From assembly GCF_003790525.1 (NCBI RefSeq), contig NZ_CP033635.1: a DNA stretch of 64,000 nucleotides. One strand, written 5' to 3'. Below are positions 46,715 to 47,592 of this stretch, in pieces (the first letter of the stretch is position 1; each line of letters starts with the position of its first letter). Origin of the DNA: Escherichia coli. Lineage in GTDB: Bacteria; Pseudomonadota; Gammaproteobacteria; Enterobacterales; Enterobacteriaceae. The notes beneath the pieces were generated by a model. The model was given only the letters and a program-made list of their open reading frames with translations, made no database searches and was not told the origin of the DNA. A program made the position numbers and the translations under genes.

Positions 46715-46743
46715 GAAAGCAAGGGGGGCCCCCCCTTGCTTTC
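46715..46743. terminator. perfect GC-rich palindromic hairpin immediately after the truncated araC stop
   Basis: gaaagcaagggggg-c-ccccccttgctttc, a 14-bp perfect inverted repeat with a 1-nt centre, directly following the tandem TAA TAA stops. Confidence 0.6.
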
Positions 46744-46746
46744 TTA

Positions 46747-47592
46747 TTATTCACATCCAGCCCTAAACTCGCTCGGGCTGGCCCCGGTGCATTTTTTAAA
46801 TACTCGCGAGAAATAGAGTTGATCGTCAAAACCAACATTGCGACCGACGGTGGCGATAGGCATCCGGGTGGTGCTCAAAAGCAGCTTCGCCTGACTAATG
46901 CGTTGGTCCTCGCGCCAGCTTAAGACGCTAATCCCTAACTGCTGGCGGAAAAGATGTGACAGACGCGACGGCGACAAGCAAACATGCTGTGCGACGCTGG
47001 CGATATCAAAATTGCTGTCTGCGAGATGATCGCTAATGTACTGACAAGCCTCGCGTACCCGATTATCCATCGGTGGGTGGAGCGACTCGTTAATCGCTTC
47101 CATGCGCCGCAGTAACAATTGCTCAAGCAGATTTATCGCCAGCAATTCCGAATAGCGCCCTTCCCCTTGCCCGGCGTTAATGATTTGCCCAAACAGGTCG
47201 CTGAAATGCGGCTGGTGCGCTTCATCCGGGCGAAAGAAACCCGTATTGGCAAATATTGACGGCCAGTTAAGCCATTCATGCCAGTAGGCGCGCGGACGAA
47301 AGTAAACCCACTGGTGATACCATTCGCGAGCCTCCGGATGACGACCGTAGTGATGAATCTCTCCTGGCGGGAACAGCAAAATATCACCCGGTCGGCAGAC
47401 AAATTCTCGTCCCTGATTTTTCACCACCCCCTGGCCGCGTATGGTGAGATTGAGAATATAACCCTTCATTCCCAGTGGTCGGTCGATAAAAAAATCGAGA
47501 TAACCGTTGGCCTCAATCGGCGTTAAACCCGCCACCAGATGGGCGTTAAACGAGTATCCCGGCAGCAGGGGATCATTTTGCGCTTCAGCCAT
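46747..47592 (-). CDS. araC: arabinose operon regulator AraC, C-terminally shortened variant (281 aa)
   Basis: ORF 46747..47643 trimmed to [15 protein letters not shown]; body matches E. coli AraC, but the last five codons are synonymously diverged (TTT AGG GCT GGA TGT GAA) and end in TAA TAA, lacking the terminal EKVNDVAVKLS. Confidence 0.9.

Follow-up and report, generated by a model that had tools for sequence, protein, structure and literature searches.

The 3' end of araC in Escherichia coli SMS-3-5 as the probable left edge of horizontally acquired DNA at an araC-yabI insertion hotspot

To explore how the arabinose regulator gene araC comes to end in an unusual set of codons, tandem stops and a palindrome, we analyzed a stretch of 64,000 nucleotides (nt) of an Escherichia coli chromosome (contig NZ_CP033635.1, hereafter the window), which is 100% identical to the chromosome of strain SMS-3-5. 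The araC coding sequence, without its stop, runs from 47592 down to 46750, divergent from araBAD, whose start lies at 47931. Downstream of araC, the 85-nt spacer that leads to yabI is replaced by an insert of 1.85 kb with about 32-40% G+C. Read in the direction of araC, the insert passes from a palindrome and an AT-rich promoter region to the beginning of a kinase gene, an IS630-family remnant and two open reading frames (ORFs), ORF283 and ORF140 (Table 1), and reads as a composite of the left end of an island, the IS630 remnant and a two-gene module of unknown function. Twenty bases past ORF140 an orphan copy of the native araC tail begins (GT GCC GGT TGT GAA GAA AAA GTG AAT GAT GTA GCC GTC AAG TTG TCA TAA), which runs on into the native spacer and yabI. 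A search of the window for the full 57-nt native tail, allowing up to 3 mismatches, found no match, since its first 7 nt are missing from the orphan. No terminal inverted repeats or long direct repeats bounding the insert were found.

Table 1. Features at the araC-yabI locus of the window (PGAP, Prokaryotic Genome Annotation Pipeline; a dot marks a feature without strand).
Feature	Coordinates	Strand	Basis or remark
araC coding sequence, 281 codons plus the first TAA	46747..47592	-	PGAP: araC, WP_001361831.1
araC codons AGG GCT GGA TGT GAA (R277-E281), non-native, synonymous	46750..46764	-	comparison with K-12
Tandem in-frame TAA TAA at the likely ancestral stop position (codon 282)	46744..46749	-	K-12 has GAA AAA here
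33-nt perfect palindrome (16+1+16), G6/C6 core between A-rich and T-rich arms	46713..46745	.	repeat search, folding, terminator scan
AT-rich spacer and promoter region of the five-gene island	46580..46712	-	alignment/blastn homology to E2348/69 and K. spallanzanii
5' remnant (~38 nt from the ATG at 46579-46577) of the DeoR-PfkB kinase gene ('rbsK')	46542..46579	-	
IS630-family transposase remnant	46342..46539	-	PGAP pseudogene 46361-46500; ~80% identity to plasmid IS630-family genes
ORF283, conserved hypothetical protein (distant DUF4056)	45385..46233	-	
ORF140, small protein with hydrophobic N-terminus, always paired with ORF283	44956..45378	-	
Orphan native araC tail (K-12-type nt 830-879), right-hand copy of the duplicated end	44887..44936	-	
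Native K-12-type araC-yabI spacer	44802..44886	-	
yabI (DedA family), core gene at the far side of the hotspot	44037..44801	-	

Nucleotides 1-828 of araC in the window are ordinary E. coli sequence. Reading the minus strand from 46767 to 46744, we confirmed the end described in a first-pass annotation of this DNA, TTT AGG GCT GGA TGT GAA TAA TAA, with TTT at 46767-46765, AGG at 46764-46762, GCT at 46761-46759, GGA at 46758-46756, TGT at 46755-46753, GAA at 46752-46750 and the two stops at 46749-46747 and 46746-46744 (window-type end as sequence, TTYAGRGCNGGNTGYGARTAATAAGAAAG). Compared with the K-12 MG1655 record, three codons differ at four nucleotides (araC nt 829, 831, 834 and 837), and all the differences are synonymous. 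The first-pass annotation had likewise seen only synonymous changes, in four of five codons. The native end given there, GAG TTC CGT GCC GGT TGT GAA GAA AAA, does exist in a pBAD-like copy (L005), whereas the MG1655 record (L094, about 1270-1290) has GAG TTT CGT at codons 275-277; the 'native' reference is itself polymorphic, with TTT in one and TTC in the other. We also noted short contigs with an araC identical to that of E. coli inside assemblies labelled Photorhabdus, Xenorhabdus and Citrobacter metagenome-assembled genome (L005, L006 and L068). L005 and L006 are K-12-type and L068 is E2348-type, and all are probably contamination.

The differences between SMS-3-5 araC and a K-12-type copy are unevenly distributed, with 17 differing sites in nt 1-827 (2%) and 5 in nt 828-837, and this clustering at the 3' end is real. 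The change from CGT to AGG at R277 takes two steps and is still synonymous. AGG at this codon is not exotic, since AGR codons are native at R277 in E. albertii, Salmonella and Yokenella, and both GCA/GCT and GGA/GGT occur as variant codons in natural araC ends. Tandem TAA TAA is found at the same place in an unrelated enterobacterium (L047); by itself it is not unusual.

To determine how widespread this end is, we searched 5426 complete E. coli genomes with a 63-nt probe spanning the stops and the hairpin. The junction family was present in 1067 genomes, from humans, animals and water, with an identity to the window of at least 99% in 70 genomes, 95-99% in 11, 90-95% in 403 and 80-90% in 583. 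Shared by about a fifth of sequenced E. coli, the araC end in the window is a natural allele. A contiguous araC-yabI locus of K-12 type was found in 4332 genomes, an SMS-3-5-type insert of 1.85 kb in about 486 (including ATCC 25922) and a 5.3-kb five-gene island, as in E2348/69, in about 572. The E2348-type araC ends in TTT AGG GCA GGA TGT GAA TAA TAA and has no orphan tail, and in 568 records of this type the K-12 junction probe matches through its araC part only. The end is thus carried by about 570-580 genomes without an orphan tail downstream, which speaks against treating it as something special or designed, as the first-pass annotation itself had foreseen. Two further insertions were observed at this junction. 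IS421 lies in the hairpin loop in strain CUVET21-PYO5 (L086, about 4030-5390), and in strain 21221 (L003, 6888-8010) ISKpn26 has entered the TTAG formed by codons 276-277, so that AraC runs on into IS-derived residues.

We then asked whether the 281-residue AraC encoded in the window is a shortened protein, using 83 araC loci from species representatives outside E. coli. A 281-residue AraC ending in FRAGCE and a stop is the rule among these loci, with TAA as the stop in most genera, and it is usual in Salmonella, the Citrobacter freundii group, C. koseri, Klebsiella, Kluyvera, Raoultella, Enterobacter, Kosakonia and others. This bears out the earlier suggestion that a naturally shorter AraC is plausible. 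The 292-residue form is found in K-12-type E. coli, E. albertii, other Escherichia and the C. amalonaticus group. Where K-12 has GAA GAA AAA GTG AAT GAT G, Salmonella and Citrobacter have GAA TAA AAA GTG AAT GAT G, and the sequence after their stop is homologous to the K-12 extension (GAA AAA GTG AAT GAT GTA GCC GTC AAG TTG TCA TAA); in C. koseri and S. arizonae it stays in frame past the stop to TCA TAA. Since the downstream sequences are homologous, the two lengths come down to GAA versus TAA at codon 282. This suggests that the 11-residue extension of K-12 arose by a lineage-specific change from TAA to GAA, with read-through of the ancestral stop into the old 3' untranslated region. AraC in the window would accordingly have its stop back at the ancestral position and, contrary to the idea that its last 11 residues had been lost to two stops, would not be truncated, the K-12 extension being the derived state. 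The 11-residue tail is presumably dispensable, and the span of the solved construct of the AraC DNA-binding domain, 2K9S (residues 175-281), is consistent with this.

A G+C-rich stem-loop lies directly 3' of the araC stop. The palindrome had been described as perfect with a 1-nt centre, which it is, and as 14 bp long, which understates it: the arms (46713-46728 and 46730-46745) are 16 nt each and 100% complementary, and they share 2 nt with the second TAA. The palindrome has a single occurrence in the window and was seen in none of 100 shuffles; the two places per genome reported for it look like both strands of one site. Folding as RNA gave a 15-bp stem with a 3-nt loop, at -35.9 kcal/mol for the 86-nt context (z = -4.55) and -25.6 kcal/mol for the 50-nt hairpin segment. 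The perfect form is confined to the SMS-3-5-like genomes (70-81 genomes, -25.6 kcal/mol). The NE88/ATCC 25922-like hairpin (403 genomes; GAAAGAAGGGGGGGAACCCCCTTGCTTTC) has one unpaired G and reaches -21.0 kcal/mol, the E2348-like hairpin (583 genomes; GAAAGAAGGGGGAGTCTCTTACTTTC) only -8.7 kcal/mol, and Klebsiella-like islands (K. spallanzanii and the contigs L097 and L098) have a hairpin just past the araC stop with an unrelated stem, TGCTGAGG...CCTCAGCA. A perfect palindrome is therefore not a general trait of the junction but a lineage-specific perfected form of an imperfect hairpin. Relative to the commoner form it has an extra C opposite the unpaired G and a symmetrised centre. This perfection appears to be a recent change in SMS-3-5, most simply by quasipalindrome correction through template switching or by selection that tightened the stem. 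Such correction is a known phenomenon, as are bidirectional intrinsic terminators, and the SMS-3-5 changes resemble it in turning the hairpin arms into exact complements.

The hairpin looks like a bidirectional intrinsic terminator and probably acts as a terminator or insulator that parts araC from its co-oriented cargo, a reading that the hairpins at the same place in the Klebsiella-like islands also favor. A simple terminator scan flagged the G/C core with its T-rich arm on both strands, and the arrangement of a G/C stem between symmetric A-rich and T-rich tracts, here drawn out into an extended palindrome, is that of known bidirectional terminators. It differs from them in its broken T-tract and in the lack of a convergent gene that would call for termination the other way. 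Two further points weigh against this putative role. The full stem is followed by UUCAUCUG and not by a classical long U-tract, so that the likeness to a terminator depends on taking the inner G/C stem, which a T-rich tract does adjoin (UUGCUUUCUU); and the hairpin of E2348/69 is weak, suggesting that strong termination may not be required. A search of known RNA families in Rfam gave only sub-threshold chance matches at the hairpin.

The sequence on the far side of the stop points to an origin for this end. Homology to the left end of the five-gene island covers the final 16 nt of araC and continues through the stops, hairpin and AT-rich promoter region as far as the first ~38 nt of the kinase gene. 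This island encodes a DeoR-PfkB kinase, a DHDPS-family aldolase and a TctCBA transporter. The homology is three-way, linking SMS-3-5, E2348/69 and K. spallanzanii across the stop region, the hairpin position, the promoter and the start of the kinase. K. spallanzanii has the same five genes between araC and yabI, and in the Klebsiella-like contigs L097 and L098 the island directly follows a 281-codon araC. A parallel case is provided by contig L004 ('E. coli' SCPM-O-B-8794, 8001-16843), where a chaperone-usher fimbrial operon directly follows araC. About 83 of the 843 nt of its araC depart from the K-12 type, and almost all of these lie downstream of about nt 125; the encoded AraC is nevertheless identical to that of SMS-3-5, so that about 700 nt are diverged but synonymous. 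L004 looks like the same effect on a larger scale, with foreign cargo, a donor araC and a crossover inside the gene. This fimbrial type was absent from the 5426 complete RefSeq E. coli genomes.

Overall, these observations make it likely that the 3' end of araC in the window is the left edge of horizontally acquired DNA at a recurrent araC-yabI insertion hotspot. The synonymous differences in AGG GCT GGA TGT GAA are best read as relic divergence of a foreign araC ortholog. Homologous recombination in the conserved flanks would have brought foreign DNA into E. coli, with one of the crossovers falling inside araC, so that the donor's araC end would have been imported together with the cargo. Later recombination with ordinary E. 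coli araC alleles would have erased the donor polymorphisms upstream. This erasure would have halted at the dense mismatches of nt 829-837, since there is no pairing homology beyond them. Having evolved as part of a functional araC, the donor end would have left only synonymous differences. Of the two origins that the first-pass annotation had offered, the natural one, a diverged araC homolog that arrived with the insert, is favored, both by the same end in 1067 natural E. coli genomes and by the parallel in L004.

Several points weigh against this account. A donor with a native TTT AGG GCW GGW TGT GAA TAA TAA was found at 0 of the 83 araC loci outside E. coli, and the closest kinase homologs outside E. 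coli are 81% (K. spallanzanii), 76%, 73% and 72% identical. As no sampled genome carries the donor's araC, we infer both the identity of the donor and the recombination event, and that donor sequence eroded up to the edge of homology is argued and not measured. L097 and L098 were considered as donors and rejected, as their araC ends are host-like. We likewise rejected a Campbell-type single crossover of a circular fragment: with no more than about 18 nt of araC ahead of codon 282, the orphan is too short for a RecA-mediated crossover.

The two-gene module is also found in other genera. Homologs of ORF283 and ORF140 (68-70% identity) occupy the araC-yabI interval of C. freundii, C. farmeri and Salmonella enterica, flanked by repeats of the araC end. 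The repeat is CGCTGGATGTGAATAA in C. freundii (16/16) and CGCGCCGGTTGTGAA in C. farmeri (15/15), where the left copy is followed by a TGA borne by the module and the right copy by the native GAA AAA GTG; in Salmonella it is TGTGAATAA, about 9 nt, and in the window the two copies agree at 15 of 21 nt. AraC ends at E281 plus a stop in every locus that bears the module or the island. The right junctions of the module align across all four taxa, and the orphan tail in the window is for this reason attributed to insertion of the module and not of the island. The module is also found after araD and before polB, in Trabulsiella, another enterobacterium and Enterobacter sp. ENT03. At the seven loci examined outside E. 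coli it directly follows an ara gene in the same orientation, araC at four loci in three taxa and araD at three. At araC it lies within the final codons, together with a 15-18-nt duplication of the end of the gene and an in-frame stop of its own. No E. coli with the module alone was found, and two divergent E. coli matches to ORF283 (P0039 and P0033) proved to have the same arrangement in low-quality assemblies. The promoter region of ORF283 is conserved by alignment in every context, for ~100 nt upstream to about 46340. A candidate AraC-binding half-site in this region was rejected by inspection of the alignment, where the conserved motif better fits a sigma-70 -35/-10 pair. The structure of ORF283 is predicted with confidence and matches none of the solved structures in the PDB, and searches of Pfam, NCBIfam, PADLOC and PHROG with both proteins were empty, save for DUF4056 at E = 0.6.

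These repeats raise the question of whether the module, or a larger element of which it is a remnant, is a site-specific integrative element with the last ~15-18 nt of araC as its att core, which would make the junction in the window attL-like. We consider this unlikely. Phage 21 and e14 integrate in the 3' end of icd and supply a surrogate end, and an element of this kind would similarly carry a surrogate 3' end and stop, keeping AraC intact and leaving an orphan tail. Consistent with this, the module lies between direct copies of the araC end in four taxa, at an insertion point that is the same within 2 nt, and a perfect repeat of 15-16 nt is the size of a typical integrase core. In C. farmeri, from a species group whose native AraC has 292 residues, the stop after E281 comes from the first bases of the module, and the presence of the module at araD-polB indicates that it has moved. 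The araC end in the window further resembles the icd case in its substitute end with synonymous differences, native pseudo-fragment downstream and flanking direct repeats. However, the insert encodes no recombinase-like protein: ORF283 and ORF140 show no integrase, transposase or nuclease signature in the four databases above, terminal inverted repeats are lacking, and no duplicated araD end is apparent by eye at araD-polB. Nor were excision products seen. The chimera expected from excision occurs in 0 of 5426 genomes (best match 97.0%), and all 4333 contiguous alleles keep the K-12 codons. The cargo, moreover, consists of 1.85-5.5 kb of metabolic or uncharacterized genes, and the left junction in the window belongs to the five-gene island and not to the module. 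Finally, copies of the repeat that are identical within each host are also expected if module-free conspecifics convert the flanks up to the edge of homology, and gene conversion from empty-site alleles would likewise give the observed pattern of repeats. The shared insertion point is more simply explained by selection, since only the few bases between E281 and the yabI promoter accept an insert without harm to either gene.

A far less probable alternative is that the module and the duplicated araC end form an old vertical polymorphism, already present in the ancestor of Escherichia, Salmonella and Citrobacter, from which the contiguous loci arose by repeated deletion between the repeats. A fast-evolving gene diverging vertically could show the 68-70% identity seen between the module proteins of different genera, the orphan tails and spacers of each genus resemble those of the host, and the E. 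albertii end, TTT AGA GCG GGT TGT GAA GAA, resembles a chimera of the left and right copies. Set against this, the locus is contiguous in outgroup Escherichia (E. albertii and two further species) and in most species of each genus, and the presence/absence polymorphism would have to outlast several speciations. The chimera that deletion should leave is likewise unmatched among the contiguous E. coli alleles, which all have K-12 codons. As for deliberate engineering with a recoded homology arm, double stop and insulating hairpin, the other origin considered in the first-pass annotation, we give it practically no credence: the synonymous recoding, TAA TAA and perfect palindrome bear it a superficial resemblance, while the window is identical to the chromosome of a wild, environmental isolate, the junction family is spread through 1067 genomes with natural intermediates of both codons and hairpin, the cargo consists of hypothetical genes and an IS remnant, and no recombinase scars were seen, with no FRT or loxP site at up to 3 mismatches in the whole window.

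Horizontal acquisition at a hotspot, the reading we favor, has well-known counterparts. Strain-specific islands at core-gene hotspots, exchanged through homologous recombination in the flanks, have been catalogued for E. coli. Similarly, araC and yabI flank at least three cargos in Escherichia (the five-gene island, the IS-degraded remnant with the module, and the fimbrial operon), the same cargos occupy the orthologous site in other genera, and donor-type polymorphism is found at the edge. The difference is that the edge in the window lies inside the araC coding sequence, which would make the last codons and the stop foreign, and that in L004 the foreign tract spans most of araC. The locus also resembles C-terminal displacement, in that araC has a new end with cargo and its old end lies downstream as a non-expressed orphan with short homology. 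Displacement with orphaned 3' ends has been described at rhs, cdiA and type VI secretion system effector loci, and homology-facilitated illegitimate recombination (HFIR) was proposed as the mechanism (PMC5361080); in E. coli, HFIR has been found to produce joins that combine a homologous anchor with an illegitimate junction (PMC3240628). In contrast to the polymorphic toxins of those loci, AraC is a regulator; the duplication spans just 15-21 nt, and both araC ends encode the same RAGCE, so that only the 11-residue extension is lost and nothing is diversified.

Two observations concern other parts of the window. The araC-yabI spacer contains a hairpin-like element, GGGTTTGCAGAATCCCTGCTTCGT (44812-44850), which is conserved from E. 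coli to Klebsiella and has a diverged copy at the right end of the five-gene island, just before yabI; it may be a promoter or leader element of yabI. Farther along, about 1.15 kb (39547-40703) separates sgrR (37867-39546) from thiB (from 40704) and contains a minus-strand ORF of 189 residues (39776-40345) with no NCBIfam match, while the leuD-sgrR gap is only about 300 nt. The sgrR-thiB spacer of K-12 is short, and judged by the K-12 gene order, setA appears to be missing here.

About one in five E. coli genomes, including E2348/69 and ATCC 25922, encodes an AraC of 281 residues and not the 292-residue form of the K-12 and pBAD types. A search of the literature on araC and yabI found nothing describing this locus or hotspot. 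What remains of interest is the hotspot itself and the uncharacterized two-gene module with its duplicated araC end. That ORF283 and ORF140 represent an unrecognized small mobile or ara-associated module is a doubtful proposition. If true, the module may enter by a site-directed mechanism that repairs its target, with a 15-18-nt duplication and its own in-frame stop; alternatively it may be accessory to arabinose physiology, with the 3' end of araC as a dedicated docking site for several islands. Under the origin proposed here, the locus would be a natural example of recombination trimming foreign flanks to the last unpairable bases, in which synonymous 'recoding', a double stop and a perfect palindrome resemble design yet would arise by ordinary recombination and selection. 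The araC stop marks a compact insertion hotspot common to several enterobacterial genera, and may serve as a marker locus.

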